64,000 bases of DNA from Candidatus Altimarinota bacterium (GCA_963664295.1 OY760935.1:96001-160000), one strand, 5' to 3'; counted from the first letter of the stretch, positions 4,896 to 40,264 are shown. Translations and numbers: made by a program. The notes: a model not told the origin generated them from the letters alone.

Positions 4896-4912
4896 CTGTT
4901 TGGATTATCCAT
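4181..4912 (-). CDS. Hypothetical helical protein sharing its N-terminal ~67 aa with the downstream gene
   Basis: 243-aa ORF overlapping the start of the next gene, with a promoter upstream. Confidence 0.75.
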   Translation of the reverse strand: MDNPNRKQARPALKTLLKAHLAVTKQLLERDGLDPMLKSAIDTGHAEFMSAIEEMKRIKAGVNNVVEQANGEPRPKNIETRAELPPIMHQIADLIRDTKKLILKKDLDEKTRKILDTIGDMLYGEIIVYMTKKMTHATESLNNIKTEVSITEQADKSFLINCSVNDSDGSSAVGEVEKINNLLIELSEEQIDEQAEQSPTSVLMKKYLLALGEIIEKNELSSETKALLSDYYSELLIKNEQSK

Positions 4913-4948
4913 TTTGTATTATTGTATTAAAATTAAGTTATTCATATT

Positions 4949-22799: not shown

Positions 22800-22869
22800 T
22801 TAGTTTAAAATTCTTAATTTGATTATATCAAAACATAAAAAATAACATATTGAATTCGCCTTGAGCCTT

Positions 22870-23285
22870 TTTGACCTCTTAATTGTCAACGGGGTCATTG
22901 GTTCGCATAAGTTTTCATAATTAAAACAACCTCATTCCTACGGCATGAGAACATTTTAATGGTGGAGCATATCGGACTCGCCCTCCGCTCCAAGTTTTCG
23001 TTTATAACGAAAAGCTTTCCACTTCGGGACACCGTTGACTCTTGATTATATGGGGTCATCGATTCGAGCTCAAATAAGCCTAATTAAAAAAATAACATGC
23101 TTTTAGCATGTTCTTTTTTTAATGGTGGAGCATATCGGACTCGCCCTCCGCTCCAAGTTTTCGTTTATAACGAAAAGCTTTCCACTTCGGGACACCGTTG
23201 ACTCTTGATTATATGGGGTCATCGATTCGAGCTCAAATAAGCCTAATTAAAAAAATAACATGCTTTTAGCATGTTCTTTTTTTAA
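22870..23285 (-). repeat. Array downstream of tRNA-Ala: two 163-bp units, each ending in a copy of the tRNA 3' end, plus a degenerate third unit
   Basis: TGGTGGAGCATATCGGACTCG (complement of the tRNA 3' 21 nt) at 22960, 23123 and 23286. Inverted tRNA pieces GGGGTCATYGRTTCG at 22891, 23052 and 23215. Confidence 0.93.
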
Positions 23286-23362
23286 TGGTGGAGCATATCG
23301 GACTCGAACCGATGACCCCCTGCTTGCAAAGCAGGTGCTCTAGCCAGCTGAGCTAATGCCCC
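23286..23362 (-). tRNA. tRNA-Ala(TGC)
   Basis: Reverse complement GGGGCATTAGCTCAGCTGGCTAGAGCACCTGCTTTGCAAGCAGGGGGTCATCGGTTCGAGTCCGATATGCTCCACCA; G3:U70 pair; anticodon TGC. Confidence 0.98.
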
Positions 23363-23409
23363 ACATTTATTGCTAGACTTGAAACATTTTATACAAATTT
23401 TTTCTTAAA

Positions 23410-23652
23410 TCAAGGAAAAATTCTCCCCAAAGTTGCCTGCATAACGCCAGAAATTTGACCAGTAACACTCAAAAGCACAATTACAAACAAAATCATAGCA
23501 ATCAAGACCACAGCAGTATAAGACCCTCCCATACCAAGAAAGCGCTCTGCCCAGCCCCATTTTCCAGTAAATTCAATAATCTGTTTGCGCCATTTAATCA
23601 TCAAAAAAGTCAATCCACCACTAGCCAATAGCCAAATAACCTTACTAAACAT
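23410..23652 (-). CDS. Small two-TM membrane protein
   Basis: 80 aa, two hydrophobic segments flanking GKWGWAERFLGMGGSY, a pattern I associate with small conserved CPR proteins. Confidence 0.7.
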   Translation of the reverse strand: MFSKVIWLLASGGLTFLMIKWRKQIIEFTGKWGWAERFLGMGGSYTAVVLIAMILFVIVLLSVTGQISGVMQATLGRIFP

Positions 23653-23816
23653 AGAAAAAATAAATTATTTCCATTATTTTGACACATTTTGTGTTGGCTT
23701 ACAAATCACTTTCCAAAGTTTAGAAAATATGGCAAAGATACACTACAAATCTTGCTTTTTTGGCTATTTTATGAGACAATATTATGAATTATTTTCGCCA
23801 AGCTTAAAACAAAAAA

Positions 23817-26273
23817 ATGAAAACAATAATCAAAAAAACGGCTTTAATGTTTATATTATCACTATTTTTTGTTCCGCAATCACTTGCAAACAGCACTATT
23901 AATGTAAAAGTTAATGATACTATTGCAGGTTATGCGACTGTTTTGAAAACTTCTTATACAGAGCCGGACAAAGAAGTGATTTTTAGAATTACAAAGCCAG
24001 ACAACAGTGTTGTGGAAATTCAGGCTATGACCAATGAAATTGGTGTTGCTGAAGTTGATTTCACTAGTTTTCACACTAGAAAATCAGGTCAGTATGAAGT
24101 TGTTGCTTTTTTAGCAAATGAAAGCGATTATAATGCGCCAGTGAGCACTTTTGAAGTTTTTTCTGGTGATTTATCGCACACTACTTCTTCTGTTTATGTA
24201 GATCCACCTTCAATTTCTGCTGATGGTGTTGAAAAAGCTTTAATTAAAGTTTCCTTGCGTGATAAATATAATAATCCAGTTGAAAAACATAATTTAATGC
24301 TTGTTTCTTCTCGTCCTGGTGATGAAATTATTGAAGTAGATAATAAAAAAGCTGATAAGAATGGCAATGTTTATTTTCAAATTTCCTCAAAAGAAGCTGG
24401 TATTTCATATATTACTGTTTTGGATCAAATTACTGGTCAGGTTTTAGAAGATCGTGAAAAAATTGTTTTTTATGAACCAGATAATAACTATGGACAAGGT
24501 GGTAATTGGTTTGAAGCTAATATTTTTGGAGGTATTGACTCAGATGAGGGTAATGGCGATATAAGTGCCAATATAACTGATAGTGATGAGCTTTTTGGCC
24601 CTATTGACCATTTTGAAATTGATTTTCCAAACAAAGTGGAAGTTGGTAGTGATCAAAATTTTCTTACTATTATTGCTAAAGATAGTGATGGCAATGTTGT
24701 AAAGAGCTACACAGGAACAATAATTATCTCTACTCCTAATGATGAGAATGCAATTTTGCCTGGTGATGGCAGATATACCTATCAAGCTCGCGATCAAGGG
24801 GAAAGAACTTTTGATCTTGCTCTGATTTTTTCAAAATCCGGCAGGCAAATGATAGAGGTTTATGATTTTGATCCTGATACTGGAGAGATTTCTGAATTGA
24901 TTAAGGGTGAAAAAATTGTAGAAGTGACAGATGAAACAACAGGTCCTGTCACAAATCCAGATCCTTCAACAGAATTAGTAATTAAAAAGCCAGCAGATGG
25001 CTCTAGGTCTAACAGTTCTACGGTTGTTGTAGTGGGAAAAGGTAGGGCAAATACAAATTTAAAAATATTTATAGATGATGTAAAAGTTGCTGATGTAGAG
25101 GTTGATGCTGATGGTCTTTTTACAAAAGAGGTAAAAAATGTTAGCGATGGTCATCATTTAATTTTTGTAAAAGAAGCAGAAGGGTCACAGGAATCTTCTG
25201 CATCAATTGATTTTGAAGTTGATACAACTCCGCCATCATTAGATGAGCTTATTATTAAACCAGAGGGTGGTATAGAAGTTGATCAAGTTTTTGATATTGA
25301 GGTTTATTCTAGTCCAGATTTACCAAAAGTTGAATTTCAAGCAGGGGCAGTGCGCGAGACTTTAATAGAAGATGAAACAGAAAAAGGAAAATACACACTC
25401 AGAATTCCAGCACCAGCAGACCCAGGCGAATATCCAATCACAATTACATTAGTTGATGATCTTCAAAACACAGGTAAATATACAAATTCAGGTATACTTT
25501 CGGTTTTGCCAGCAGAAAATAAAACTCCAATTACAATAATTGGTTTCGAGGTTGCAGAAATAGGTGAAGATAGGGTGAAATTAAGCTGGGAAAGAATAGA
25601 AAATCTCACAGAAAATGCGCTTCAGCTTCAATTAAGTTATGGTACAAATAAATTTTATTTAAAAGATACAAAAACAATTGCCTTAGATTTAACAGAAACA
25701 GAAGTAAAATCTCTTGATGTAGATACAAACTACTTTTTCATGCTTTCTGTTCTAGATTCTTTTGGTGAAACTTTGTCAGAAAGCGGAATAATAAACGCAA
25801 AAACAACAGATGATGGACTTATTACCAATCCAGAGCCTCTTCATCCTTCAGCAAATGAACTTGTTGCTACTCCAGGCAATGGTCAGGTTTTTTTGCGCTG
25901 GACAAACACAAGTCCAAGTTTTTATGAATTAAAAGTTAACATTAACAATACTCCTTATTTTGAAACATTAAATTTTTCAGGAACTACAAGTAGTGCCAAT
26001 ATAACTAATTTAATAAATGGTCAAAAATATGTATTCACCATTAAGGCAAAAGACAGCACAGGTTCTTATTTAGACACAGAATATCCAATTGCAACAGCAA
26101 CTCCAGAATGGGATGGCACAGCACCACAAAACAATAACCCAATTATTCAAAACTACAATCCTCCACAAAATCAAGACACAGGACCACTTTCTGAAAAAAT
26201 TATATTTTCTTCAATATTAATTATTATTGCTGGTTTTTTATTTAGAAAAGCTTTTCTTATATATAAAAATTAA
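23817..26273 (+). CDS. Secreted multi-Ig/FN3-domain surface protein with C-terminal membrane anchor
   Basis: Signal peptide; invasin-like SISADG..A.IKVSLRDKYNNPV; Ig-like VDTTPP; FN3 ATPGNGQVFLRW...NLINGQKYVFTIKA; C-terminal DTGP + TM + basic residues. Confidence 0.85.
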   Translation: MKTIIKKTALMFILSLFFVPQSLANSTINVKVNDTIAGYATVLKTSYTEPDKEVIFRITKPDNSVVEIQAMTNEIGVAEVDFTSFHTRKSGQYEVVAFLANESDYNAPVSTFEVFSGDLSHTTSSVYVDPPSISADGVEKALIKVSLRDKYNNPVEKHNLMLVSSRPGDEIIEVDNKKADKNGNVYFQISSKEAGISYITVLDQITGQVLEDREKIVFYEPDNNYGQGGNWFEANIFGGIDSDEGNGDISANITDSDELFGPIDHFEIDFPNKVEVGSDQNFLTIIAKDSDGNVVKSYTGTIIISTPNDENAILPGDGRYTYQARDQGERTFDLALIFSKSGRQMIEVYDFDPDTGEISELIKGEKIVEVTDETTGPVTNPDPSTELVIKKPADGSRSNSSTVVVVGKGRANTNLKIFIDDVKVADVEVDADGLFTKEVKNVSDGHHLIFVKEAEGSQESSASIDFEVDTTPPSLDELIIKPEGGIEVDQVFDIEVYSSPDLPKVEFQAGAVRETLIEDETEKGKYTLRIPAPADPGEYPITITLVDDLQNTGKYTNSGILSVLPAENKTPITIIGFEVAEIGEDRVKLSWERIENLTENALQLQLSYGTNKFYLKDTKTIALDLTETEVKSLDVDTNYFFMLSVLDSFGETLSESGIINAKTTDDGLITNPEPLHPSANELVATPGNGQVFLRWTNTSPSFYELKVNINNTPYFETLNFSGTTSSANITNLINGQKYVFTIKAKDSTGSYLDTEYPIATATPEWDGTAPQNNNPIIQNYNPPQNQDTGPLSEKIIFSSILIIIAGFLFRKAFLIYKN

Positions 26274-27586
26274 TGTCATTTAAAAAATGTTGTAAAAATG
26301 GCGTTACCTTGATGATAACGGCCTCAACAATTGAATTACTTGGTTGGGGCTTTTCTGATTGTTTTTTTTCTATTTTTGCTAATAATCTTCTTAATAATTT
26401 TTTTTATGTAGGAGTTCTTTATTCAGCTATTGCTACTGTTAATTTAATTTTTACTGTAGTTACTAGCAAAATGCTTTCAGAAATTTCTGCGCGCATGATG
26501 GCAGTTTTAGCCAGACTTCTTTACACAGTATGTGTGTTAATGTATTTTTTTGCCGGATTTTTTTATTCCATTATCCCTTTGTTTTTTGCTGTTTTGTTTA
26601 ATGGTATTGGTAGAGCAATGCGCAATACATCAGAGCAAGATTTTCTTATAGAACATTCTAATAATAAAAATGCTTCAACAATAATGGGCACTAATTTTGC
26701 TCTCAAAAACACAGCTTGGTATGCCTCCATGGCAATTAGTGGTTTTATTTTAATTTGGTTGGCAAATTTACTTGGAAAAACACCAGAAAATACAATTCAT
26801 TACCTTTTTCTTTTAGTTTTACCCTGTTTTGCAATAGAGGTCTTTTTACTTAAAAAAATTCACATTAAAAAAAGAATTTTTAATTTGTTTAATTTTAAAA
26901 AAGCAATTTTTGATAGCCATATTTTTACTAATTTTTTCAAAGGCACAAAAAATCTTCACCCTGTTTTAATTTTTGGGATTAGTTTAATTTTTATGCTGAG
27001 AGTATTACGAGATATGATTTTGCTTTTTGTTCCTTTATTGGCGATTAAGCTTAATTTAGAATTTTGGCAAATAGGCATACTTATTGGCTTGTTGCATGTT
27101 CCTTTTTTGTTTTCTTTTTTGTTTTCTTTTGTTGCCGATAAGGTAGATAGATTAAATTTAATTATTTTTGGACTATTATTTTCTCTTTTTCCGCTTGTGT
27201 TTTTGTCAAAAACATCTGCTCCTTTAATGATTGGTGCATTGTCTTCATTAATTTCTTTTTCGGTCGCCATTATACAACCTGCTGACTTAGGTATTATTGC
27301 GTCTTTGGCAGAAAAAAAAGATAGAGCTCATATTGCAGGATTGGAATTGTTTTTGGGACAAGCAGGGATTATTTTTGGTTCTATCGTTCTTGGCTTTGTT
27401 GCCGAGCAGTTTAGCTTGCAAACAGTGTTTTTAATTATGGCAGTAATTTCTTTTATTTTTGCCTTAATAGCAATTAAAATTAAAATACAAATTAATTGTC
27501 AAAACATCGGAAATAAACATAATAAAGTTAGCACAGAAATAACTCATCACCACATTGTTCATCATGCTTACCATGCAAATAAATAA
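26273..27586 (+). CDS. MFS transporter
   Basis: About 12 hydrophobic segments; ADKVDR motif-A-like loop; His-rich C-terminal tail. Confidence 0.85.
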   Translation: MSFKKCCKNGVTLMITASTIELLGWGFSDCFFSIFANNLLNNFFYVGVLYSAIATVNLIFTVVTSKMLSEISARMMAVLARLLYTVCVLMYFFAGFFYSIIPLFFAVLFNGIGRAMRNTSEQDFLIEHSNNKNASTIMGTNFALKNTAWYASMAISGFILIWLANLLGKTPENTIHYLFLLVLPCFAIEVFLLKKIHIKKRIFNLFNFKKAIFDSHIFTNFFKGTKNLHPVLIFGISLIFMLRVLRDMILLFVPLLAIKLNLEFWQIGILIGLLHVPFLFSFLFSFVADKVDRLNLIIFGLLFSLFPLVFLSKTSAPLMIGALSSLISFSVAIIQPADLGIIASLAEKKDRAHIAGLELFLGQAGIIFGSIVLGFVAEQFSLQTVFLIMAVISFIFALIAIKIKIQINCQNIGNKHNKVSTEITHHHIVHHAYHANK

Positions 27587-28610
27587 AATAATCACCATTG
27601 GCTCACTTACTTTTGATATTTTTGTCCGCCCATTAAGACAAGAAATAGTTCGCAGAGTCTCAGAAACAGACATAAAAGAGTCTATTTGTTTTCCTTTTGG
27701 GGAAAAAATAAGAGTAAAAAATGTTCATGAGTGTTTTGGAGGCGGAGCAGCCAACACAGGTATAGGATTTAGCAGATTAGGCATACAAACAAGCTGTATC
27801 GGTGCAATAGGTAATGACGAATGGGGACAATTAATAATCAACAACCTAAAAAAAGAAAAAATAAACACAGATCATATCCAAAAAGCCAAAGAGCAAACAG
27901 GTTTTTCCGTTATTTTGAATTCTTTTGAGGGTGATCGTACAGTTTTGGCTTATTCAGGCGCAAATCACGCTTTTGAAAAAATAGAACAAAAAATATTAGA
28001 AAATGCAGAAGGAATTCACCTTTGCCACCTTTCTGGCAAAGGAAAAAAGGTTTTTGAGGCAATAAAAAAACATTTTGAAAAAAATCCACAAAAATTTCTT
28101 TCCTGGAACCCAGGCAAAGAACAGCTGGAAAAAGGTCTAGATTATTTCAAAAGTTTTTTACCAGTTGTAGATATTCTTTTTCTCAATCGCGAGGAAGCAG
28201 AGGAATTATCAGGCTTAAAATCAAAAAGAGGATCAAAATTTGGTAAAAATATCTATGATTTATCAAAAATATTTAAGAAATTTTATCAAAAAGGATTTAA
28301 AAATATTCTAGTAATAACCGACGGACAAAGAGGAGCACAATGCTCTGATAGTAAAAGTATATATTTTTGTCCAATTGAAAACAGTAAGCCACGTGTTGAC
28401 ACTCTTGGTGCTGGTGATGCCTTTTGTAGTGGTTTTTCCTCTGCGTATATCAAAGCCAATGATTTGCCAATTTGTTTAAAATATGGCACTATTAACTCAG
28501 CAAGCGTGGTTTCTGAATTTGGAGCCCAAAAAGGCTTGCTTAAAAAACAAAAATTGGGTACAATAAGTGCCTTTAAGAAATTAAAAACCGAAAAAATAAT
28601 TTTAAAATAA
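27573..28610 (+). CDS. PfkB-family carbohydrate kinase
   Basis: GGGAANTGIGFSRLG, IGAIGNDEWG, NREEA and VDTLGAGDAFCSGF signatures. Confidence 0.95.
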   Translation: MQINKIITIGSLTFDIFVRPLRQEIVRRVSETDIKESICFPFGEKIRVKNVHECFGGGAANTGIGFSRLGIQTSCIGAIGNDEWGQLIINNLKKEKINTDHIQKAKEQTGFSVILNSFEGDRTVLAYSGANHAFEKIEQKILENAEGIHLCHLSGKGKKVFEAIKKHFEKNPQKFLSWNPGKEQLEKGLDYFKSFLPVVDILFLNREEAEELSGLKSKRGSKFGKNIYDLSKIFKKFYQKGFKNILVITDGQRGAQCSDSKSIYFCPIENSKPRVDTLGAGDAFCSGFSSAYIKANDLPICLKYGTINSASVVSEFGAQKGLLKKQKLGTISAFKKLKTEKIILK

Positions 28611-28631
28611 ACTAATTTAACCACAAACAAA

Positions 28632-29207
28632 ATGTCAGATATGTCAAAAATTGCACTAATTAGAGAAATGTTAGATAGTGCAGAAAAATCAATCAGGAGC
28701 GCAAGAAGAATGCTTGCGGATTCTTTTGGAGAAACTGCAACAGACGAAATATTAATGGCTCATAAAACTCAAGGTTTAGCACCTCCGCACACAGAAGAGG
28801 AGGGGAGAATTATTGAGGGTATTTTTGATGGCGAAAAAATGCTTGATCAAGATGCAAATCATTATCCTGTTCCTGCAAATTATGCTTCAAAATCAAAATT
28901 AGTTGTTGGTGACAAATTAAAATTAACAATTACCGACAATGGTAAATTTATTTTTAAACAAATTGGGCCTGCTGAGAGAAAGTCTTTTGTTGGTCCTTTA
29001 ACTTATGAAGATGGTCAATATAAGGTTCTCGCTGATGGTAAAGCATATAAGGTTCTTTTAGCTTCTGTCACTTTTTTTAGAGCAGAAGTTGGAGACGAGG
29101 TCACTATTTTAGTGCCTGCTGAAGGAGAAGTGGAATGGGCTGCCATTGAAGCTGTTTTGCCTAAAGTTGAAGACAAAAACGGCATTAAAGCTGATTTTGA
29201 TCTCTAA
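28632..29207 (+). CDS. Conserved hypothetical protein (CPR-type)
   Basis: IEGIFDGEKM...YPVPANYASKSKLVVGDKLKLTI...FIFKQI motif, recalled from CPR genomes; function unknown. Confidence 0.75.
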   Translation: MSDMSKIALIREMLDSAEKSIRSARRMLADSFGETATDEILMAHKTQGLAPPHTEEEGRIIEGIFDGEKMLDQDANHYPVPANYASKSKLVVGDKLKLTITDNGKFIFKQIGPAERKSFVGPLTYEDGQYKVLADGKAYKVLLASVTFFRAEVGDEVTILVPAEGEVEWAAIEAVLPKVEDKNGIKADFDL

Positions 29208-29272
29208 AATAAAAATAGATTGACTTTTGAGTGAAAAAAAAGCACCCTTAGTCACTCGTATTAAAAACAAAA

Positions 29273-32200
29273 ATGAATCGTTTATTTGAATTTTTCGTTA
29301 ATCGCTGGAGGGTAACTTACTTACTCATAATATCCTCAATTATATTCGGCGCTGTTTCTCTTGCGGATTTACCACAAGAATCTGAACCAGAAGTAGAAAT
29401 TCCTATGGCTGTTGTCACAGTTTCTTATCCTGGTGCTGCGCCTTCGGATATGGAAAATTTAGTCACTCGCAAAGTAGAAGATAAAATAGACACATTAGAT
29501 AATATTGAAGAGATTACCTCTAATACAAGACTGGGTCTTACTAACATTACAGTAGAGTTTGAGGCAGACGCTGACATAGACGAAAGTATTCGTGACCTAA
29601 AAGATAAAATGGACGAAGTAAAAGCTGATTTACCTGATAATGCAGAAGATCCTGTAGTGATGGAGATAAGAATGTCAGACTCTGCGATTATTACTTTTTC
29701 ATTAGCAGGAAAAGGTATCTCAGAAGAAAGACTATCAGACTTTGCTGAAGACATTGAAACTAATCTTGAGCGTATTAGTGGTGTCTCAAAGGTGGAATTA
29801 TTAGGTCAGAGAGATAAAGAAATACAAGTTTTATTAGATCGCCAGAAGATAGAGTCTTTGGGATTATCAGCTGGTCAAATAGTACAAAAAATTCAAACTG
29901 CCCATCTTGATTTTCCAATAGGTGAGGCAATAATAGATGGTATCAACATATCATTAAGACTTGATGGAGAGTTTGAAGGGGCAGAAGATTTAAAAAAATT
30001 ACCTTTAATAACAACAGAACAAGGCACAGTTTTTTTGGAAGATGTGGCATCAATAAAAGAAACAAGAGAAAAAGAAACATCAATATCCATGCTTGCTCTT
30101 AATAATCAAGAAGCTGAAAAAACAATTTCTTTACAGGTTTTTAAGAAAACCGGAGGAAATATTATTGATATTACAGATAACGCAAAAGCAGAAATAGAAA
30201 GAATGAAAAAAGAAGAAGAGTTGCCAAGCTCTTTAGAGGTTGAGGTTTCCAATGATAACTCAAAATTTATTAGAGATGATTTAGATAGACTTGTTAATAA
30301 CGCTTTTCAGACCATTATTATAGTCACTCTTTTTATTTGGCTAGCAATGGGCTGGCGCGAAGCTATTATTGCAGGTTTAACCATACCGTTAACTTTTTTA
30401 TTAACCTTTTTTGTTTTAAGTCTTCTTGATCAAACTCTAAATTCAATGACCTTATTTGCCCTAGTTCTTTCTTTGGGTCTTATTGTTGATAACACAATTG
30501 TAATTACAGAAGGTATTTTTGATAATTTGCGTATCAAAAAATTGCCAGCAAAAGAGGCAGCATTAAATTCTGCTAGAACTTTTTGGTCGCCAATCACAAG
30601 TGGCACATTAACAACAGTGTCCGCTTTTGTGCCAATGCTTTTAGTGTCAGGTATTTTAGGCGAATATCTTAGTATTATTCCAATTACAGTTGGCTCAACC
30701 CTTATGTGGTCTTTGGTTGTTGCTTTGTTTTTTGTTCCTACTGTGGCAACAAGTATATTCAAAAACCTTAAAACACATTCTTTTAAAGAAGCATTTTTTA
30801 TTCATAAATTAAAAGAAATTTTAAGAAAAATATTAAACACACTACTTAAACATAAATGGAAAAGAAGATCGCTGTATTTAACCATGGCTAGCTTATTGGC
30901 AGGAGTTTTTGCCCTTGTTGGGGCTGGGCTTGTCTTGCCAGATATGTTTCCTTCTTATGATGCTGATTATTTTAATATTAATATTGAAATGCCCCCGGGT
31001 ACAAAATTAGAAAGAACCTATGAAGAAGCTTTGCAAGTTGAAGAAATTGTTAAAGATACTCCTTATTTAGATAATTATTTTTTTGCCATTGGCGCAGGAG
31101 CAATAGCTTCTACAGACATGATGAGCGCAGGTGGTTCATCAAGCGCAAATGAAGCCTCTTTTACGGTGAATTTAATACCAGCAAAAGAAAGAGACACAGC
31201 ATCATACGAAATAGCAAATCAAATTCGCGAACAAATTCAAGAAATCAAAACACCAGGCAAGATTACCCTTGAAGAGCTTCAGGCAGGTCCTCCGTCTGGA
31301 AAAGATGTGGAAGTGAGAATTTTTGGTGATAACTTAGAAGAAATGGAGGTTTTTGCAAAAAAAGTCAAAAAAGAACTAGAAAACACAGAAGGAGCCATTG
31401 AGGTTGAAGATGATATTTCTCTTTCTTCTGGCGAATTTGTATTTAGTTTTAATAGAGAAAGAATGGATTATTTTGGACTAAGTGCCTCAGATGTTGCAAA
31501 TGAAATACGCACCGCAGTATTTGGCACAGAAGCCGCAGACATAGCCCGTGGTGACGATGATATTAAAATCAATGTTTCTGTTGATTGGCAAAATAAAGAT
31601 GAAATTCCTACAACAATAGAAGAAATTGAAAATCTTAAGCTAATAACACCAAAAGGTGAAAAAATTAGCATTGGTGATATTGCAGATATTAGCATTGAAC
31701 AAGGATTTTCTGTAATACGTCGCCAAGATAAAAAGAAAATTGTGCGTATTCAGTCCGATATTAAAGTTGGTGAAAATGCAACAGTAGTCTTAGGTAGACT
31801 TGAAAAAAGAGTTAAGGAAAATTTAATAGTGCCAAATGATATGGAAATTGAATACGGTGGTTCAACAGAAGATATAGACGAATCTTTTGGTGATCTTTTT
31901 AATTCCATGATTGTTGCTGTGATTTTAATAGCTTTTATACTTATCTTACAATTTCAATCTTTTAGTCAGCCATTTATTATTTTATTTGCTCTACCTTTAT
32001 CCTTAATTGGTGTTATTGGTGGATTTTTTCTTATTGGTTGGTCAATTTCTTTTCCAACGTTTATTGGTATTGTTTCTTTGTCAGGTATCGTGATCAACGA
32101 TGCAATTGTGTTGATTGATCGAATTAGAGAAAACAGAAAGGAAGACATGCCCTTAAGAGAGTCAATTATAGATGCCGCACTCTCAAGAATGAAGCCTATA

Positions 32201-32419: not shown

Positions 32420-32420
32420 T

Positions 32421-33110
32421 TTAATTTATTAAGTTTTTTTCTATTTTTTTAATTTCTTCAATGGTCAGTTGTCCAGGAGCTGTTTTTTCGCTTGCCTCAA
32501 TAGGCGCAAAAGTAAATTCACCATTAAAATAAACAGGAATTAAAAATCTACTTGGCTTACCAATATCACTCATTAAAATTGTGATGTGTTTAATTTTTTT
32601 ACGATCAAGATTTTCTGCAAGACGCAGAATTGTAATTAAATCTTTTTTATCCTTTGGTGTGCAGGCTATTTTTACAATATCCGCTCCTTTTTTGAGCATG
32701 TTTTTTACAAGATTAAGCAAGGCAGGAAGAGGAGGGGTATTATTCCAATAATGATGAGAAATAATTAACTGAGATTTGCCTTTTTTGTTTACTAATTCAG
32801 CAATTACCTGATCAGAACTTTCAAAAGCAATATCAATATATTCTGCACCCAATTCTACTGTTTTTAGTAAAATGTCCACTTTTTCCCTGTCTGTTCCTCT
32901 AAAAGCACCTTTTTCTTTTTCGTTTTTGAGATTAAAAACCAAAGGAAGTTTTTTGTTTTTAAAAATTGTTTCCAAATCGAGGTTTTTAATTTCACTAAGC
33001 CAGATTTCTTGTAAATCAGCGCCTTTTTCAGCACTTTTTTGCATTTTTTCAAGTACTTTATCCGTTGTTTTTTCTGTTATTGGAACGCAGATTTTAATTT
33101 TTTTCATCAC
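32421..33110 (-). CDS. aroD: Type I 3-dehydroquinate dehydratase
   Basis: ICVPI, GADL.E, EKGAFRG, YIDI, IISHH.W..TP, GADIVKIA (Schiff-base Lys), M...GK.SR and TAPGQ motifs. Confidence 0.88.
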   Translation of the reverse strand: MMKKIKICVPITEKTTDKVLEKMQKSAEKGADLQEIWLSEIKNLDLETIFKNKKLPLVFNLKNEKEKGAFRGTDREKVDILLKTVELGAEYIDIAFESSDQVIAELVNKKGKSQLIISHHYWNNTPPLPALLNLVKNMLKKGADIVKIACTPKDKKDLITILRLAENLDRKKIKHITILMSDIGKPSRFLIPVYFNGEFTFAPIEASEKTAPGQLTIEEIKKIEKNLIN

Positions 33111-33213
33111 AAAATAATTATCATTAAAATACTAACTTTTTTATATCTAAAAGGCAATTAAAACCTTGTATTCAAGGCTTTTTTATGAGATAATTGATAG
33201 ATAGAAAATACAA

Positions 33214-34854
33214 ATGAAAGTTCCAGGAATACTTCAAAAAACAAACATTAGAAATAAGCGCTCTTTGCTTATATATGTATCTGCGTTCTTTTTTATGTTC
33301 GCTTATACTATCTTAGCATTTTCAATAGCTAGCTTTTTAATGCATAGGTTTCCGGAAAATCCCAATGCAATCATGTTCGTAGGTATGATTTTAGGAATAT
33401 CTAGTTTTTTAGCCATTTTTGTTGACTCTTTTTGGGCTTATTTGCAAAAAATAAAACCACCAAGAGTGTTAACACTATGGGCATTAGTAGGCTTAATTTT
33501 TACAGTCTCAATTTTCTTTTTTGCAAATTTGGGTGAGATGTTTTATCCGCTTAAATGGGCAATTTTTACTTTTATGGCTGCTTTTTTATATGGCTGGAGC
33601 ATGGATTTATATGATGTCACAGTAGTGACAACCATAATCTCACGTTCAGACAACAGCAAGCTTGCTCAAAGTATTTCTCAAAAAAAAGTAGCAGAAGCAT
33701 TGGGTATGGTCTCTGGCATTTTAATAGCTAGTTTTTTGGTTAGTTTTGGCAGTGAATCTTTTACACAATTTGTACTTTTAATTTTTCTTATCTTTGTTTT
33801 TGTGTTTTTCTATCATCATTTTGACAAAGAAGAATACGAATCAGAAAAACTTGAATTTGCTGAATACACATTTGTTGATTGGAAAACAATTTTTGCCAAT
33901 ATCTCTGACAAAGAAAGAGTAAATCAAGAACTTGCGCAAACTCCTGATAAACTGAAAAATTCAGTAGTAGAGTTAGCAGAAAAAACAGGCACAGCATTAA
34001 AAAATTTGCCAGGAGAAGCATATGATTTAGGGAAAGATGTACTCGAGGCTTCTCGTAGACAACTTGTAGAAATATTAGCTAAAGAAGGTGAAATAATCCA
34101 AAGAGAGGGCGTAGAAAGGGGTAAATTTTCTTTTCCTGAGATGGTTTCCGAAATTAAAAGTAATTTTGGTGATTTTATTAAAATTTTTAATTTTAAAAAC
34201 TTAAGCATTCCTCTTTTATGGGTTTGCGCTTGTGTAATGTTATTTTCCTTTTGGGACACAATGGTAGTCACTTATCAGCCATTATTTTTGCAAGAATTTG
34301 GCAGAAATAACGCAATAGTTAGTGCAATTAGCGGTTTTTTGATTATTTTATTTATCTTTCCAGTTTTTGCTCTCCAAGTACCATTTTCTATGTTGGCAGA
34401 CAGGGTAGGTAGAGAAAAAATGGTTATTTTAGGTTTGATAATTTCTGGCACAGCAGTAATTGTGCTCAGCACAACAACCAGTCTTTGGATATTAATTATT
34501 GCTGGTATATGTGGAGGAGCAGGTTATGCAGCCGCTTTTGCGCCTGCTCAGGCTATGTTTGTTGATGAATTCAATAAAGCTCGTGGCATTGATGGAGATA
34601 AAAATTCCGAAAAAAGCGCTGGATCGCTAAGATTGACTCTCAATACAGGTAATATTTTTGGTCAATTTCTAGGAGGAGCTGTTTTTGCTTCTTTTGGTTT
34701 TGCCGGAGGATTTTTAGTATTTGGTCTTATTTTTGCTGTTTTATCAGTCACTTCTTTGGTTTTTTATTTTAAAATAAGACCGCAAAAAGAAGAAAAATCA
34801 AACTTAAATACCGAAATAAAAACAAAATCAGAAACTGAAGCCATAGAAAATTAA
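33214..34854 (+). CDS. MFS transporter with a long central cytoplasmic insertion
   Basis: Two 6-TM halves (LADRVGR motif A in the second) separated by ~125 charged helical residues. Confidence 0.82.
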   Translation: MKVPGILQKTNIRNKRSLLIYVSAFFFMFAYTILAFSIASFLMHRFPENPNAIMFVGMILGISSFLAIFVDSFWAYLQKIKPPRVLTLWALVGLIFTVSIFFFANLGEMFYPLKWAIFTFMAAFLYGWSMDLYDVTVVTTIISRSDNSKLAQSISQKKVAEALGMVSGILIASFLVSFGSESFTQFVLLIFLIFVFVFFYHHFDKEEYESEKLEFAEYTFVDWKTIFANISDKERVNQELAQTPDKLKNSVVELAEKTGTALKNLPGEAYDLGKDVLEASRRQLVEILAKEGEIIQREGVERGKFSFPEMVSEIKSNFGDFIKIFNFKNLSIPLLWVCACVMLFSFWDTMVVTYQPLFLQEFGRNNAIVSAISGFLIILFIFPVFALQVPFSMLADRVGREKMVILGLIISGTAVIVLSTTTSLWILIIAGICGGAGYAAAFAPAQAMFVDEFNKARGIDGDKNSEKSAGSLRLTLNTGNIFGQFLGGAVFASFGFAGGFLVFGLIFAVLSVTSLVFYFKIRPQKEEKSNLNTEIKTKSETEAIEN

Positions 34855-34856
34855 AA

Positions 34857-34897
34857 AAAAACACACCAATACAAATTAAGTATATTAGTGTGTTTTT
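34857..34897. terminator. Bidirectional intrinsic terminator
   Basis: AAAAACACAC-CAATA...TATTA-GTGTGTTTTT between convergent genes. Confidence 0.65.
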
Positions 34898-34915
34898 AAG
34901 CGTGAATTAAAAAAA

Positions 34916-35335
34916 TTACTCACCAAGAGACATTTGAAGGTCTCTTTCATGCTCTTCTTCGTCAGCAAGAATTTGGCGCAAAACCTGAGTTAGGCCATAT
35001 AAACCAAGCTCTTCAGATTGTTTAACTCTTTCTGAATAATTTTTGATTGCTGCTCTTTCGCCAGCAATATCCTGTTCAAGCATTTCGCGAGAGTCAGTAG
35101 ATGTCCAGCGCTTAGAAACATCAACAGAAGGTACACCACCCAAATAAGCAACTTGCTCAGAAAGTAAAATGGCATGACCCATTTCTTCATTGGCATGCAC
35201 AACAAGTTCTTTTTGGATAGATTGATATTCAGCACCAGTAATAACAGAAGCATGCTGAACATATTGAATAGCAGCTCCGTATTCATCTTCAATGTCCTTA
35301 TTAAGGAGATTGATCAATTCTTCTTTTGTAATCAT
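34916..35335 (-). CDS. Ferritin-like (bacterioferritin-type) protein
   Basis: EYGAAIQY, EEMGHA, YLGGVP, E..AI..Y and DEEEHE di-iron ligand motifs. Confidence 0.9.
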   Translation of the reverse strand: MITKEELINLLNKDIEDEYGAAIQYVQHASVITGAEYQSIQKELVVHANEEMGHAILLSEQVAYLGGVPSVDVSKRWTSTDSREMLEQDIAGERAAIKNYSERVKQSEELGLYGLTQVLRQILADEEEHERDLQMSLGE

Positions 35336-35406
35336 GTTTTTTTAAAAAAGGCAAAAATTATTTTCTCTTTCTTAAGAAGAAAATTCAAGTACTTATATAT
35401 TTTCTA

Positions 35407-35434
35407 TTGACAAAATATTTAAATATGTTAAAAT
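35407..35434 (+). promoter_or_regulatory. sigma70-like promoter
   Basis: TTGACA-N16-TAAAAT with an extended -10 TG. Confidence 0.65.
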
Positions 35435-35456
35435 ATTATCCTTTTTAAAAATAACC

Positions 35457-35864
35457 ATGAAAAAGGCATTACAACCAGCTTATCATGAAAATGGTCAGCC
35501 AGTACAATACCGACAAGAATCAGATTTTTCTCTTGAAAAAAGCATAAGACTTTCTGCTACAGAAGTCAGCAATGATGTTCTTGATTCAGGCGTCTTAATT
35601 GACACAATTTCATCTGATACGGATATTCAACGTCATCAGGAAAGAATTATGCAAATTACAGCAGAAGCAGATGCAATGCGCAATGCTGGCACATTAGAAG
35701 TGAGCAATAAAGAACTATTTGCAGATTTGATTTCTGCAAGAGAAGTTTTAGCAAAAACAGATCCTATTAAATTTGCACAAGCAAAAGCGCAAGCAGATGT
35801 ATTAAGTCGCATTCTAGAGCCAATTGAAGGAGAGAGAGAAGTAGAGTCAAGAATTATACACTAA
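35457..35864 (+). CDS. Hypothetical protein
   Basis: 135-aa ORF with its own promoter; no recognisable motif. Confidence 0.7.
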   Translation: MKKALQPAYHENGQPVQYRQESDFSLEKSIRLSATEVSNDVLDSGVLIDTISSDTDIQRHQERIMQITAEADAMRNAGTLEVSNKELFADLISAREVLAKTDPIKFAQAKAQADVLSRILEPIEGEREVESRIIH

Positions 35865-35880
35865 AAAAATATTAAAAAAT

Positions 35881-35925
35881 TTGACAAAATAAATCATAAG
35901 AGTATTATGGGAAATGTCCCATAAT
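35881..35925 (+). promoter_or_regulatory. Promoter with overlapping palindromic operator
   Basis: TTGACA-N16-TATTAT, overlapped by the perfect inverted repeat ATTATGGGA-AATG-TCCCATAAT (35904-35925) just before the DUF134 gene. Confidence 0.7.
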
Positions 35926-35933
35926 ACTCTTTT

Positions 35934-36389
35934 ATGCCTAGACAAAGAAAAAGAAGACACATCAGAGGCTGTATAAGATCAAATTTTTTCAAACCACAAG
36001 CAGTGCCAATCTCAAAATTGGAAATAATCACCTTAGAAATTGATGAAGTAGAAGCAATAAGATTAACAGAATATGAAAAAATGCCCCTACGCGAAGCATC
36101 AGAGCAAATGCAAATTTCAAAATCCACATTACATAGAATATTAGAACAAGCTCAATTTAAGGTAGCAGACGCACTTATTAACGGCAAGGCGATAAAAATC
36201 GCCAATAAAAATATTTTTTCAAATTTTACCCCCAATAACATGCCAAACAAAGACGGCACAGGACCAGACGGAAAAGGTCCAAGAACCGGCAGAGGAATGG
36301 GCACTTGCCCACCTGTCGAAGGGCAATCTTCAGGCCAAGCTCCAAGAAGAGGCTGTGGCAGAAGACCAAGACAAAATAGAGGGGAATAA
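35934..36389 (+). CDS. DUF134 (UPF0251) HTH DNA-binding protein with C-terminal DUF5320-like Gly/Arg peptide
   Basis: MPR..KRR, FKP..VP, E.EAIRL, A.EQM.ISKST..RIL..A..KVADAL.NGKAIKI, followed by MPNKDGTGP.GKGP.TGRGMG.C. Confidence 0.88.
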   Translation: MPRQRKRRHIRGCIRSNFFKPQAVPISKLEIITLEIDEVEAIRLTEYEKMPLREASEQMQISKSTLHRILEQAQFKVADALINGKAIKIANKNIFSNFTPNNMPNKDGTGPDGKGPRTGRGMGTCPPVEGQSSGQAPRRGCGRRPRQNRGE

Positions 36390-36403
36390 CCCCCTCTATT
36401 TTT
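36373..36403. terminator. Bidirectional intrinsic terminator
   Basis: AAAATAGAGGGG-loop-CCCCTCTATTTT between convergent genes. Confidence 0.75.
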
Positions 36404-36414
36404 ATGCGGAATAA

Positions 36415-36849
36415 TTATTCACTAAGCTCAACTTTTTCAAGCCAAGACAAAGGCAAAGACATAACACAATCTTCCTCTTGATCTAGTGGTTTTAAGACAG
36501 CATTAACACTAGAAGAAAAATTTTGCGTATATGTTGCTAAAATTGTTTTTAAATTAGTAATTATATGAATTTTCCCTTCTAGTAAGTCTTGAAGTTGTGT
36601 AATAATTTTTAAAGTTTCATCTCTTGATTGAATATTTGTTTGTAGGCTATTTTGCACTAAGTCATCTGAATTTTGTCGACGACCCATGTTTTCGAGTTCT
36701 TCTAGGAATTCTAATGTTTTATTAAGCCTTTTTCTTAATTCTTCAACTTCTTGCTTAATAAAATGTTTGCCTTCTTCATTAGCCAAACAAACTTTGTCAC
36801 CAATTTGTAACTTGCTAGATTTTTCTTGAGGATGATCTATTTTTTGCAT
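36415..36849 (-). CDS. Hypothetical protein with coiled coil
   Basis: 144-aa ORF; LQIGDKV.L at the N-terminus and LP..WLEKV at the C-terminus flank a heptad-rich segment. Confidence 0.65.
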   Translation of the reverse strand: MQKIDHPQEKSSKLQIGDKVCLANEEGKHFIKQEVEELRKRLNKTLEFLEELENMGRRQNSDDLVQNSLQTNIQSRDETLKIITQLQDLLEGKIHIITNLKTILATYTQNFSSSVNAVLKPLDQEEDCVMSLPLSWLEKVELSE

Positions 36850-36902
36850 TTTTTAGCTTAAAAAGTATATAATCATGCTAAAATTTATTAAATTTGTCAA
36901 AT

Positions 36903-37508
36903 TTAAAATACAAAAAGCATATTTAAGCTACTATAAGTAGCCTTAATAGCGAAAACAATTAAAAGTAAAGCAAAAAACTTAAAAACATAAGGTACAAATT
37001 TTTCCTTAGTAAGCAAAGGGCGAAATCGAGCAAAAACAAAAGCCCAAAATAAATTTGCCAAAAGCCAACCGAGCTGAAAGAAAAACAAAAAAATTAAATA
37101 ACCAAAAGTATATTTTTCAGTGAGCAAAAAAGCCTGCGGAACACCAACAGTAAGCCAAAAAATCCACAAAGGACCATTAAAAACAGTAATTAAAATAATT
37201 TTATTAAGAGTAAAAATACTTTTTTGATTATTTTCAATTTTTTTAATTCGCCAAACCTGACTAGCCAGCCAAACAAGAACAGCCGAACCAGCAAGAGAAA
37301 GTAAATAAAAAAACTCAGCAGGTATATTTAAGTTAAAAATCACAGCAAAAATACCAAAAGCCAAAACACTTTCAGTAAGCATAGCAATAAAAATAATACG
37401 CAAGCTTTTTTTAAAGCCACCTGCCAAAACTTCTGTAAAAACAGAAGTTAAAATAGGGCCAGGAATAGACCCGCCAACAATGCCTAGTCCAACAGGAGTT
37501 AAAATCAT
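36903..37508 (-). CDS. LysE/RhtB-family translocator
   Basis: IPGP near the N-terminus, G...LVWLA and N.P.WIFWLTVG motifs; about 6 TM segments. Confidence 0.82.
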   Translation of the reverse strand: MILTPVGLGIVGGSIPGPILTSVFTEVLAGGFKKSLRIIFIAMLTESVLAFGIFAVIFNLNIPAEFFYLLSLAGSAVLVWLASQVWRIKKIENNQKSIFTLNKIILITVFNGPLWIFWLTVGVPQAFLLTEKYTFGYLIFLFFFQLGWLLANLFWAFVFARFRPLLTKEKFVPYVFKFFALLLIVFAIKATYSSLNMLFVF

Positions 37509-37553
37509 AAAATTATTCTAACAATTTTATTGTAGTTTACATAAAAATTTTAC

Positions 37554-37603
37554 TTGACATTTATGTTATATATATCTAACATAATGTTAGATTTAATTAA
37601 CAT
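37554..37603 (+). promoter_or_regulatory. Promoter with two tandem ATGTTA-N8-TAACAT operators
   Basis: TTGACA-N17-TAACAT; palindromes at 37563-37582 and 37584-37603 upstream of the DUF2178-XRE operon. Confidence 0.75.
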
Positions 37604-37606
37604 AAT

Positions 37607-37996
37607 ATGAAAAAATTATCACAAAGAAAATATATACTTTATAGACTATTACTTATAATAACTCTTAGTGTAACAGTTGGTGCGTTTGTTTCTGTTGGGA
37701 ATTATATAATTCCCTTAGTTTCTTTCTGTGTAGTTATGTTGGCCATGTGGAGACTGAAAAAGAACACAGCAATACAATTCACGGACGAACGAGTGGAAAA
37801 AATCGGAGGTATAGCCGCAAGATACACATTATCTATCTTGCTTTTGTTTTTAGTTTTTATAGGTATTCCTTTAATTGCTTTAGGGAAAAATAGTCCAACT
37901 TTTTATTTTGTGGGCAATTTGGTAAATTTTATCGCAATGGGATCCTTGCTTTGTTACGCATTTATTTTTCATTTTTTAAATAAAAAAGGAGAATGA
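37607..37996 (+). CDS. DUF2178-like membrane protein
   Basis: Four TM segments with central DER..KI...AA..T motif; ATGA overlap with the XRE gene. Confidence 0.8.
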
Positions 37997-38187
37997 AAAC
38001 CAAGCTTAGAGAATATCGTGTGCAAAAAAATCTCACCCAAGCAGAATTAGCAGAAGCTATTGGCGTACGACGAGAAACCATTGTTTTTTTAGAGCAAGGA
38101 AAATATAACCCTTCTTTACGTCTTGCATATGATCTTGCAAAATTTTTTAATGTAGCAATAGAAGATTTATTCCAATTTGGAGATTAA
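37993..38187 (+). CDS. XRE-family (Cro/CI-type HTH) transcriptional regulator
   Basis: [35 protein letters not shown]....EDLF. Confidence 0.95.
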
Positions 38188-38192
38188 ATAAC

Positions 38193-38567
38193 TTATTCCA
38201 AAATAACTTTTTTAGACAAGTTTTTAAGTTGCAGTTTGTATTCACCTTTTTTTAGATTACAGATTTTGCCTTTTAATCCATGCATTCCTAGGCTATCCAT
38301 GCAGTCAGTTGGATTTTTAATTTTAATTTTTATTAAATTATCACTAAATTCCGCGTCATATTCATAAGTACAATTTTGTTCCTGCCTGTTTATTTCAAAA
38401 ACAATACAATTTTCTTCTATAGAAGTATTAAAAAAAGTTTCATTATTATCAAAATGTGCAAACTCATATTCAAAACTAGGAGTTTTTGATTTTTTAGTTA
38501 TTTTTGTGCCTCCTCCACAGGCTGATAAAAACAATACTAGTGTTAGTAAAATAATTTTTTTATGCAT
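38193..38567 (-). CDS. Putative lipoprotein
   Basis: Start at MHKKIILLTLVLFLSA-C (lipobox); four further Cys; beta-rich sequence. Confidence 0.72.
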   Translation of the reverse strand: MHKKIILLTLVLFLSACGGGTKITKKSKTPSFEYEFAHFDNNETFFNTSIEENCIVFEINRQEQNCTYEYDAEFSDNLIKIKIKNPTDCMDSLGMHGLKGKICNLKKGEYKLQLKNLSKKVILE

Positions 38568-38583
38568 GAGCTTTAAAAATATA

Positions 38584-38988
38584 TTATTTGAATAATTTTT
38601 TCGTTTGTGTTGAAAAATCTGCAAAGTCAAAAGTGACAACAGCTATCCAAAAAAGCGCTAAAGATAGCCTAAAAACAAAAACATTACCGATCATTAAAAC
38701 AAGAAGTATATCGAGTATAATAAACAACATTCCAACCACAAGCATTGAGAAAAAAGTAGTCACATGACCCCACCACAAAGATTGCTTGTCTATTATGTTT
38801 TTATAACTATAAATAAAATTCGATGTGATTGGTGCTATGACAATTAAGCCCACAAACAATAAAAGAGTATCCAGTCTTTCAGTTGGCATTTTTGACACCT
38901 CTTTTGCAGTAATAAGGTAAAACAAAATCAGTAAAACATGTATCAAAATATTTTTTATTACTATATTTTTAATGCTTATTTTTTCCAT
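38584..38988 (-). CDS. Hypothetical four-TM membrane protein
   Basis: 134 aa with four hydrophobic segments. Confidence 0.7.
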   Translation of the reverse strand: MEKISIKNIVIKNILIHVLLILFYLITAKEVSKMPTERLDTLLLFVGLIVIAPITSNFIYSYKNIIDKQSLWWGHVTTFFSMLVVGMLFIILDILLVLMIGNVFVFRLSLALFWIAVVTFDFADFSTQTKKLFK

Positions 38989-39052
38989 TTATTGCAAAAA
39001 CTTGATATTAAAACTATATCAGGGGTTTCGAGAGTGGACAAGGGGGGGATAA

Positions 39053-39334
39053 TTATTGATATGTTTTAATAAACTCATTTATTTTATATGATTCTATATT
39101 GGCTTTTTTTGCAACTTTATATTGCTGGTTGTCTTCAGTAAGAAGTATGCCTTTTTCTTGATGAGCTAAACAGACATAAATATAATCAGGTGGCTTTAGG
39201 TAGTCAATTTTGCTTTTTAAGCTATTTATCCAAAAAGCTTCATCTATTGAAAAAAATTTAGGCTCTAGGGCATTTTGTTTGGTTATATTTTGATTTAGGT
39301 TAAATATATTATTTACAAATAATTTCCCCTCCAC
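39053..39334 (-). pseudogene. 5'-truncated PIN-domain (VapC-like) gene remnant
   Basis: C-terminal PIN motif D.IYVCLA..EKGILLTED.Q...AK is present, but the N-terminal xxDT/SxV motif is missing. The 5' end runs into the tRNA-Lys repeat array. Confidence 0.6.
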
Positions 39335-40189
39335 TCCGCGCCCTCGTTATTCACTAGGTCGCTCCGCTCTGGGTCGTAATTCTCGCTAAGCACTTGGCGG
39401 GTGAGGTGGGGATCGAGTTTTTTGTTTCGGGTTTTGCTTCGCAAAAGCCCTCCACTGCAGACCGCACCCACGGGCTAATTAGATGGGCTCCCAACTCATA
39501 ATTAAAAACAATTTAAATACAACAAATAGCGAACGCTAGTGAGCGAGAGGGGTGAATTGGGCGGGCGTGTACCGCCCAAGAGGGGCGACGCTAGCCCCTT
39601 ATAATTGGCGGGTGAGGTGGGGATCGAGTTTTTTGTTTCGGGTTTTGCTTCGCAAAAGCCCTCCACTGCAGACCGCACCCACGGGCTAATTAGATGGCCG
39701 TGTGCTCGCTCCCAACTCAAAAAATATTTTCCAGCCAGCTTTGCTGACTAAAAAATATTTGGCGGGTGAGGTGGGGATCGAACCCACGGCCAATGGCTTA
39801 AGAGGCCACTGCTCTTAATTTATACCCAGCACAGCCCTAACGGGCTGTCCCGAGCTGGATATAATCCAGCTCTTACCTACGCCTCGCATCTGCTTGGTCG
39901 GTACATGCCCGCCCAAGCAGATGCTCGCGATCGCACCTTACGGTGCTCGGTAGAGCAGTGTCCTTAAGTTATCAGCCGAAGACTTAAATCCATTCACATT
40001 AAAAACCATTCCTGCTTTGCAGGACTGCTTTTTAATGGCGGGTGAGGTGGGGATCGAGTCTTTTGTTTCGGGTTTTGCTTCGCAAAAGCCCTCCACTGCA
40101 GACCGCACCCACGGGCTAATTAGATGGCCGTGTGCTCGCTCCCAACTCAAAAAATATTTTCCAGCCAGCTTTGCTGACTAAAAAATATT
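39330..40189 (-). repeat. Complex array downstream of tRNA-Lys with four extra copies of the tRNA 3' end
   Basis: TGGCGGGTGAGGTGGGGATCGA at 39395, 39606, 39760 and 40036 (gene at 40190). A 154-bp unit is repeated, and 39606-39815 is duplicated at 40036-40245. Confidence 0.95.
39760..39815 (-). pseudogene. 5'-truncated tRNA-Lys(CTT) copy
   Basis: Identical to the 3' 56 nt of the tRNA at 40190 (anticodon arm, T arm, CCA) but lacking the 5' 19 nt. Confidence 0.85.
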
Positions 40190-40264
40190 TGGCGGGTGAG
40201 GTGGGGATCGAACCCACGGCCAATGGCTTAAGAGGCCACTGCTCTACCACTGAGCTACTCACCC
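40190..40264 (-). tRNA. tRNA-Lys(CTT)
   Basis: Reverse complement GGGTGAGTAGCTCAGTGGTAGAGCAGTGGCCTCTTAAGCCATTGGCCGTGGGTTCGATCCCCACCTCACCCGCCA; anticodon CTT. Confidence 0.98.

Follow-up and report, generated by a model that had tools for sequence, protein, structure and literature searches.

Short tRNA-matched cassettes with a Flavo-1-like core behind tRNA genes of a Candidatus Altimarinota bacterium

Architecture of the tRNA-Ala and tRNA-Lys loci

The window analyzed here is a 64,000-nucleotide stretch (C1:96001–160000, contig OY760935.1) of the single 1.215-Mb contig that makes up the genome of a Candidatus Altimarinota bacterium (GCA_963664295.1; 33.5% G+C, completeness 100%). Two intact tRNA genes, tRNA-Ala(TGC) at 23286–23362 and tRNA-Lys(CTT) at 40190–40264, both detected with ARAGORN, which was used to locate host tRNAs, and with Rfam, which was used for RNA families, are each followed by a series of short tRNA-derived units that we refer to as cassettes. 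All features at these two loci lie on the minus strand. A cassette with a T-loop junction measures 154–189 nt, contains no protein gene and is placed behind an intact tRNA. Read on the tRNA strand after CCA, it consists of a terminator-like hairpin (P1), an inverted copy of the host variable (V) loop and T arm, an AT-rich turn, a sense copy, an insert, and a duplicate of the tRNA 3′ end. The sense copy is degenerate and 10–11 nt long; the duplicate is exact, extends from the T-loop to CCA, and begins at tRNA position 55–60 in all 12 measurable cassettes. In the predicted fold, the inverted copy pairs with the sense pieces, and the insert is extruded at the T-loop. P1 would act as a terminator, keeping the host tRNA functional.

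At the tRNA-Ala locus, P1 of cassette 1 (23247–23285) follows CCA directly and has A/T-rich arms and a 3-nt loop. It is followed by the inverted V loop/T arm copy (23215–23246), whose acceptor-facing part is decayed and for which its own tRNA tail outscores all 179 others. Next come the AT-rich turn (23205–23214) and the degenerate sense V loop and 5′ T stem (23194–23204), then the insert, hereafter the core (23144–23193), and an exact 21-nt duplicate running from position 56 to CCA (23123–23143). Cassette 2 (22960–23122; 163 nt) is a tandem copy of cassette 1, with its core at 22981–23030 and its duplicate at 22960–22980. A third, different remnant (22866–22959) retains P1 (22921–22959), an inverted V/T arm (22891–22906) and a decayed sense arm, without core or duplicate. 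The AT-rich turn of the Ala cassettes resembles that in the Met, Lys, Val and Pro cassettes, and a sigma-70-like site matching at 10 of 12 positions stands just ahead of each Ala core (23208–23236 and 23045–23073, minus strand).

The tRNA-Lys(CTT) locus contains two types of cassette. T-loop cassette 1 (40036–40189; 154 nt) comprises P1 (40149–40189), the inverted copy (40126–40148), the turn (40117–40125), the sense arm (40107–40116), the core (40058–40106) and an exact 22-nt duplicate (40036–40057). T-loop cassette 2 occupies 39606–39759 (core 39628–39676, duplicate 39606–39627), and T-loop cassette 3, whose front is deleted, occupies 39395–39497 (core 39417–39465, duplicate 39395–39416). 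Between the first two lies a 276-nt cassette (39760–40035) with the same order of parts and a junction in the D-loop: P1 (39999–40035) is followed by an inverted copy that extends up to the D arm (approximately 39945–39991), a multi-hairpin core, and an exact 56-nt duplicate from the D-loop to CCA (39760–39815). Its inverted match scores 40.5, compared with 31 for the best of 500 shuffles, and as RNA it is predicted to form a rod of −131 kcal/mol. Two palindromic trailers are also present, one at 39520–39605, which recurs in this genome behind tRNA-Ser(GGA) and the transfer-messenger RNA (tmRNA), and one at 39317–39391, which also follows the last duplicates at tRNA-Gly(TCC), Phe and Gln(TTG).

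A preliminary description of this DNA had reported only the five T-loop inserts, as a bulged hairpin at the same T-loop position in pseudo-copies of two tRNAs. The inserts are present at the coordinates it gave, and the stem with its bulge, the compensatory differences between Ala and Lys, and the TCCACT flank are as it described. The junctions agree to within one base without being identical: at Lys, 49 nt have been added cleanly between T54 and T55 without any target duplication, and the 50-nt Ala insert replaces T55. The tRNA sequence said to resume beyond the insert is indeed there, although it is merely the short degenerate sense copy, which forms one arm of a hairpin whose partner, the inverted V/T arm copy, had gone unreported. 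Likewise, the interrupted copies are tRNA-derived but incomplete, as the D and anticodon arms are missing. TCCACT proved to be the complement of half a motif, with its pairing partner across the hairpin. The proposal of a minimal non-autonomous element holds in this genome insofar as a structured, non-autonomous unit with a T-loop junction exists, but the 50-nt hairpin is only its core.

The hairpin pattern put forward in that description has six matches in the whole genome, all behind tRNAs: the five inserts and one behind tRNA-Lys(TTT). A pairing-aware descriptor matched five times, always within tRNA cassettes, and 0, 0 and 0 times in three shuffled genomes. The exact pattern was absent from 40 relatives and from a viral contig set; its three matches across 185,579 genomes comprise two intergenic Bacteroidota elements and one chance match within a gene.

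A covarying core related to Flavo-1

In the conserved core, which lies on the tRNA-sense strand, a GY/RC pair separates two internal loops; a 3-bp stem precedes the first of these (GNA/RNA), and a variable inner hairpin follows the second (GNA). In our first covariance model, R1, the pairs were set out of register, giving 46% pairing, which did not exceed shuffles, and 12 of its 24 outside matches were discarded by eye as chance; model R2 carries the corrected structure. Because the rows for the covariation analysis were gathered with R1, they were not selected for the corrected pairing. In these rows 95.3% of 232 cells are paired, compared with 78.6% after shuffling, with 56 versus 17 two-sided changes. 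None of 500 shuffles reached as high, controls with slid registers gave 27–54%, and the script count was 125 of 128. Taken alone, the inserts show only a modest folding advantage over shuffled sequence (z −1.0 to −1.9); the structural evidence for them rests on covariation, not on folding energy. The single bulge, suggested earlier as a recognition mark, does not bear this role out, since its base is C, T or G here and it is often absent elsewhere.

The Ala insert aligns to positions 13–65 of the Flavo-1 model (RF01705) at 29.9 bits, below the gathering cut-off of 42 bits, and the model has no match for the Lys, Val or Met core. The two Bacteroidota loci that carry the exact hairpin pattern score 49.2 and 49.1 bits and are true, intergenic Flavo-1 elements.

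When 149 genomes of the class were searched with R2, 15 of them yielded 62 matches, among which 12 are training rows. Across the phylum, 1 of 120 other genomes sampled had a match; the core is therefore seen mainly within the class. A position within 300 nt of a tRNA is taken by 21 of the 62 copies (16 upstream and 5 downstream), and 41 lie farther away; at 20 of these 41 loci, Rfam found no RNA family beside the core. Reading the flanks of all 62 copies in these 15 other genomes placed none inside a T-loop. The core is thus a dispersed, tRNA-prone repeat, and loop specificity belongs to the cassette only. The earlier claim that the hairpin itself targets the T-loop falls with this result and with the D-loop cassette at tRNA-Lys. 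The accompanying expectation that it would occur mostly in tRNA-derived sequence likewise fails outside this genome, although many further covarying examples do exist.

A GCG(G/T)TC(C/T)G-like stretch opens the free cores, and TCCC closes the elements to which they belong. Such T-arm-like words at the two ends may explain the docking site. We also noted three recurrent settings of the core in other genomes: at eight loci it lies 17–19 nt before tRNA 5′ ends on the opposite strand; at five it lies 42–48 nt ahead of tRNA-Leu on the same strand, two of them with a 14-nt duplicate of the tRNA start; and in genomes G491 (18 matches), G476, G486, G456 and G003 it is joined by a second hairpin and a conserved end in a free element of about 130 nt that is dispersed between genes.

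The strand on which the stable loops lie bears on the nature of the working molecule. Of 30 triloop hairpins in cassettes, 19 read C-(G/A)NA-G on the tRNA-sense strand and 1 on the other, counting copies that are not independent. GCGNAGC mini-hairpins are reported to be highly stable when made of DNA, with much lower stability for a related hairpin of RNA (PMC13037366). DNA-stable triloops on one strand favour single-stranded DNA (ssDNA) over RNA as the working form.

Host matching and exchange of cores

To gauge host matching, each inverted copy was scored against 180 tRNA tails. It ranks the tail of its own tRNA in the top 5% in 13 of 30 cassettes (1.5 expected), including 10 of the 15 from this genome, and the excess is confined to the V loop and T arm. 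An inverted copy running through to CCA received no overall support, the acceptor part being at control level.

Frames and cores vary separately. Lys(CTT) and Lys(TTT), with near-identical tails, carry the same cassette except for P1, and Gln(CTG) and Gln(TTG) share a common frame with a different core. A second core of 66 nt is 94–100% identical in seven copies at six tRNAs, the last 18 nt of which are 44–94% identical; its motif was found in none of 400 other phylum genomes. These patterns suggest that frames follow the tRNA and that cores move between frames. Separately, the front half of the Gly(TCC) cassette occurs without a tRNA at positions 540376–540460 of the contig, 5 kb off, apparently copied with a duplicated intergenic region.

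Distribution of the cassettes

In the genome of the window, a full cassette stands behind 13 of 37 tRNAs by eye (12 by a fixed threshold), and a partial one behind two more. Two genomes of the same family, G001 and G002, were compared, taking 30 tRNA loci in each out of 40 and 41 tRNA matches; no cassette was found at any of the 31 and 33 tRNAs examined, respectively. The same layout occurs in genomes G447, G027, G500 and G067. Threshold counts were 1 of 33 tRNAs in G447, 2 of 33 in G027 and 1 of 29 in G500, with a few more by eye; these three genomes were chosen because one cassette was already visible there. A strict pattern of a tRNA end plus an inverted T-loop matched in 7 of 150 other phylum genomes, among whose matches two are full cassettes and the remainder partial; the reversed control gave 0, as did the genome of the window itself.

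At the Gln(CTG) cassette, contigs from the likely source sample cross the junctions, and the second core recurs with tRNA-Ser-type flanks in contigs of a separate seawater sample. This indicates that the cassettes are not an assembly artefact. The core-to-T-loop junction pattern matched metagenome contigs 12 times, none a cassette and 11 within coding sequence. The literature searched, mostly outside subscription papers, yielded no description of this cassette architecture. The patchy presence of cassettes and the near-identical cores at different tRNAs point to mobility.

Candidate enzymes

The genome has no match to PF01797 (Y1 transposase) or to the PF00078 reverse transcriptase, and no HUH-type gene was found among 48 proteins scanned beside cores, cassettes and window loci. 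A single PF00589 tyrosine recombinase gene (306 aa), which we read as Xer-like, lies away from the cassettes.

The genome does have three small genes of the GIY-YIG type: a tandem pair stands ahead of tRNA-Pro, and the third is bordered by palindromes of a different kind. The tandem pair (contig positions 482635–483400) encodes identical 82-aa proteins ahead of tRNA-Pro(TGG), each gene following a stub of the tRNA 5′ part that stops within the T-loop, its anticodon arm swapped for a CCGCC/GGCGG hairpin. The third gene (95 aa; contig positions 622400–622900) sits between GTCAT...ATGAC palindromes in an Ssn-like layout, and similar palindromes occur in the window at 47557–47768. The small GIY-YIG proteins match PF01541, their nearest solved structures are UPF0213 proteins, and NCBIfam has no family for either. 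Among the best 29 homologues of the 82-aa protein, taken one per genome, 26 lie within 600 nt of a tRNA and on its strand. Many tRNA-linked homologues sit between partial tRNA copies, and two have the cassette described here behind the adjacent tRNA. The CCGCC-n-GGCGG hairpin is found at 13 of the 29 GIY-YIG loci, compared with 4 of 60 control loci, and also in the Arg(GCG) cassette. Members of Ssn, a related family of small GIY-YIG proteins, are reported to cleave ssDNA next to hairpin repeats (PMC11893778). We consider the small tRNA-linked GIY-YIG nucleases the best candidate for the enzyme that acts on the cassettes, a putative assignment; no small GIY-YIG gene adjoins the cassettes in the window.

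Other repeats in the window and genome

Several further repeats were noted. In the window, 118-nt tandem units precede tRNA-Leu(GAG) at 1000–1465, each carrying its first 27 nt, and 153-nt palindromic trailers follow it at 1557–1900, recurring behind tRNA-Met and tRNA-Thr. Elsewhere in the genome, tRNA-Glu(CTC), Phe and His have perfect 80–85-nt tandem arrays of tRNA 3′ halves, and fMet, Tyr and Ser have 83–135-nt arrays of tRNA 5′ ends. A 4734-aa open reading frame (ORF) at window positions 7424–21628, with an acidic N-terminal region and many repeats of about 60 aa, probably encodes a large surface protein. A 209-nt direct repeat, 97% identical, lies at the starts of two adjacent minus-strand ORFs (3998–4206 and 4713–4921).

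Proposed mechanism and alternatives

We propose that the cassette, with its Flavo-1-like core, is an ssDNA element that is tailored to its tRNA, lacks autonomy and depends for its movement on a trans-acting nuclease of the GIY-YIG type; we assign this reading a probability of roughly 40%. The T-loop junctions at positions 55–60, like the one in the D-loop, fall where a folded tRNA strand is unpaired. The cassette would likely spread as folded DNA, its single-stranded form being suggested by the triloops. A nuclease supplied in trans, for which the small tRNA-linked GIY-YIG protein is the candidate, would nick tRNA loops, and host repair would then paste the cassette in, likely via a fold-back template switch. 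Cores could be exchanged between frames through their T-loop-like ends, and tandem copies could arise by unequal recombination.

A number of observations weigh against this proposal. As a nicking nuclease has no strand-transfer activity, the pasting step has to be assumed, and an exact duplicate beside a decayed inverted copy misfits one recent event. Host matching is weak outside this genome, with 3 of 15 cassettes in the top 5%, and the excess is nil in the acceptor part (0.50 versus 0.50 in the control). Homologues of the 82-aa protein occur in 65 of 121 genomes, so common that their co-occurrence with cassettes says little, and the two same-family genomes carry tRNA-adjacent homologues yet no cassette. 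No homologue of the tRNA-Pro locus proteins is encoded within 600 nt of any of the 62 free cores, and no cassette of this layout was found with both an intact nuclease gene and a 3′ duplicate. The published SRM pattern of the Ssn system fails on the cassettes, with one match in the genome and none within 400 nt of a tRNA. Contigs aligned to the Gln(CTG) cassette show no cassette-skipping joint, although contigs drop rare variants and absence is not implied. Finally, the G-A-rich internal loops and the terminator suit RNA equally.

One alternative dispenses with a dedicated enzyme: fold-back errors of replication or repair at the terminator hairpin would create the frame, and the Flavo-1-like repeat would be drawn in by microhomology. 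P1 does lie at the centre of the fold-back, free core ends resemble T-arm sequence, and this genome has many simple tandem arrays made of tRNA ends. We nevertheless regard this account as rather doubtful, as it does not readily yield an identical order of parts in unrelated families of different sequence, two same-family genomes devoid of cassettes, or identical cores behind different tRNAs. Moreover, the shared T-loop sequence amounts to 7+4 nt, which is short for general recombination.

The cassettes could also be minimal integrative elements, or attR remnants, mobilized by a tyrosine integrase crossing over in the T-loop or at the T/acceptor junction. An intact tRNA with a displaced 3′ fragment is the signature of an island, and T-stem-region sites account for 1836 of 3919 islands in PMC4383910. 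Tandem units would suit repeated circle integration, and the units fold stably as circles (z −3.3 to −10.3). Such an origin is unlikely, given that the only PF00589 gene is Xer-like by our reading and not near a cassette, that the junctions range over positions 55–60 and once fall in the D-loop, and that an inverted target copy is foreign to the model; 13 different tRNAs would require one very broad integrase or many lost ones.

As a speculative extension of the ssDNA proposal, to which we give little weight, the inverted tRNA copy could act as an internal guide, pairing with the strand of the host tRNA and positioning the cut in the T- or D-loop opposite, with the Flavo-1-like core serving as a protein-binding module. 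Exchange of the arms would then direct the element to a new target, and Flavo-1 would provide the docking site for an ssDNA recombination enzyme shared across phyla.

It is quite unlikely that the working molecule is RNA, be it a small RNA transcribed from the core or a cassette RNA that directs its own insertion via the antisense arm. The covarying G-A-rich internal loops in the predicted RNA fold, the sigma-70-like site right before the Ala core, and the listing of Flavo-1 in Rfam as an sRNA, first presumed transcribed, speak for such a role. P1 with its T run, however, separates the tRNA from the core, no such promoter-like site precedes the Lys cores, and 1.9 such sites are expected by chance in the region; the genome lacks the PF00078 reverse transcriptase, and DNA-stable triloops dominate.

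The preliminary description had pointed to REP-like hairpins moved by HUH enzymes (IS200/IS605 TnpA or RAYT) or by an integron integrase. A bulged hairpin, strand polarity, the Lys insertion without target duplication, and dispersal at high copy in some genomes, as in G491, fit this idea. It has become very improbable here, since a genome of 100% completeness yielded no PF01797 match, no HUH-type gene was among the 48 scanned proteins, the bulge is not conserved, and the sole tyrosine recombinase lies far from any cassette. The intron-like insert suggested alongside it, for which the clean insertion in the tRNA loop at Lys is the one favourable sign, is contradicted by the cassette anatomy: D and anticodon arms are missing from the interrupted copies, which also have a degenerate 5′ flank, Ala lacks T55, no intron or ribozyme family matched, and removal would restore no full-length tRNA.

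Comparison with known systems

Like Flavo-1 (RF01705; PMC2864571), the core has two purine-rich 3×3 internal loops around a GY/RC pair, followed by a T-run/A-run stem, and its stems covary. The Ala core nevertheless stays below the family's cut-off, the Lys core is not matched, and the terminal flanks (model positions 1–12 and 66–76) are replaced by tRNA-derived arms; furthermore, the host is not Bacteroidota-like, and here the core is built into tRNA cassettes. The Ssn/SRM system, as described in PMC11893778, similarly ties small stand-alone GIY-YIG genes to strand-specific hairpin repeats, and its authors propose an IS-like origin for Ssn/NTS-SRM. It differs in that the SRM pattern does not match, it has no target-matched arms, and our cores are not beside a nuclease gene; the word tRNA does not appear in the main text of that paper.

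The resemblance to tRNA-integrating islands with tyrosine integrases (PMC4383910) extends to the intact tRNA with a displaced 3′ fragment in the same orientation, the T-arm crossover and the tandem arrays. In contrast to islands, the cassettes span 154–276 nt, are geneless and lack an integrase, and they have an inverted target copy inside, a variable junction and exchangeable cores. REP, BIME, REPIN and MITE-like repeats are, like the cassettes, short, protein-less, palindromic, mosaic and tandem, but this genome has no RAYT, the closing stem measures 3–4 bp with no longer terminal inverted repeats, and the arms are tailored to each host tRNA. The available portion of PMC3184786 mentions no tRNA-targeted REP form. 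Unlike MITE insertions, the Lys insertion has no short target duplication, and unlike integron attC arrays, the units have no genes between them and no integrase nearby. Tandem inversion duplications and fold-back triplications show a direct-inverted-direct order around hairpin turns. The arrangement here differs from these in being tiny, in occurring at tRNA ends in many lineages, and in carrying a conserved foreign core.

The cassette behaves like a tRNA parasite of the REP or island type while falling outside each of the named families. It links Flavo-1, an orphan Rfam motif without an assigned function since 2010, to cassettes of a different phylum that resemble mobile elements. As a minimum, it accounts for the dead tRNA fragments of small genomes, which can be mistaken for pseudogenes, introns or island ends. 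The cassettes also provide testable substrates: their junctions are exact, one tRNA has breaks at two positions, and relatives carry empty alleles. Should insertion be guided by the target-matched arm, they would represent a very small programmable insertion system.

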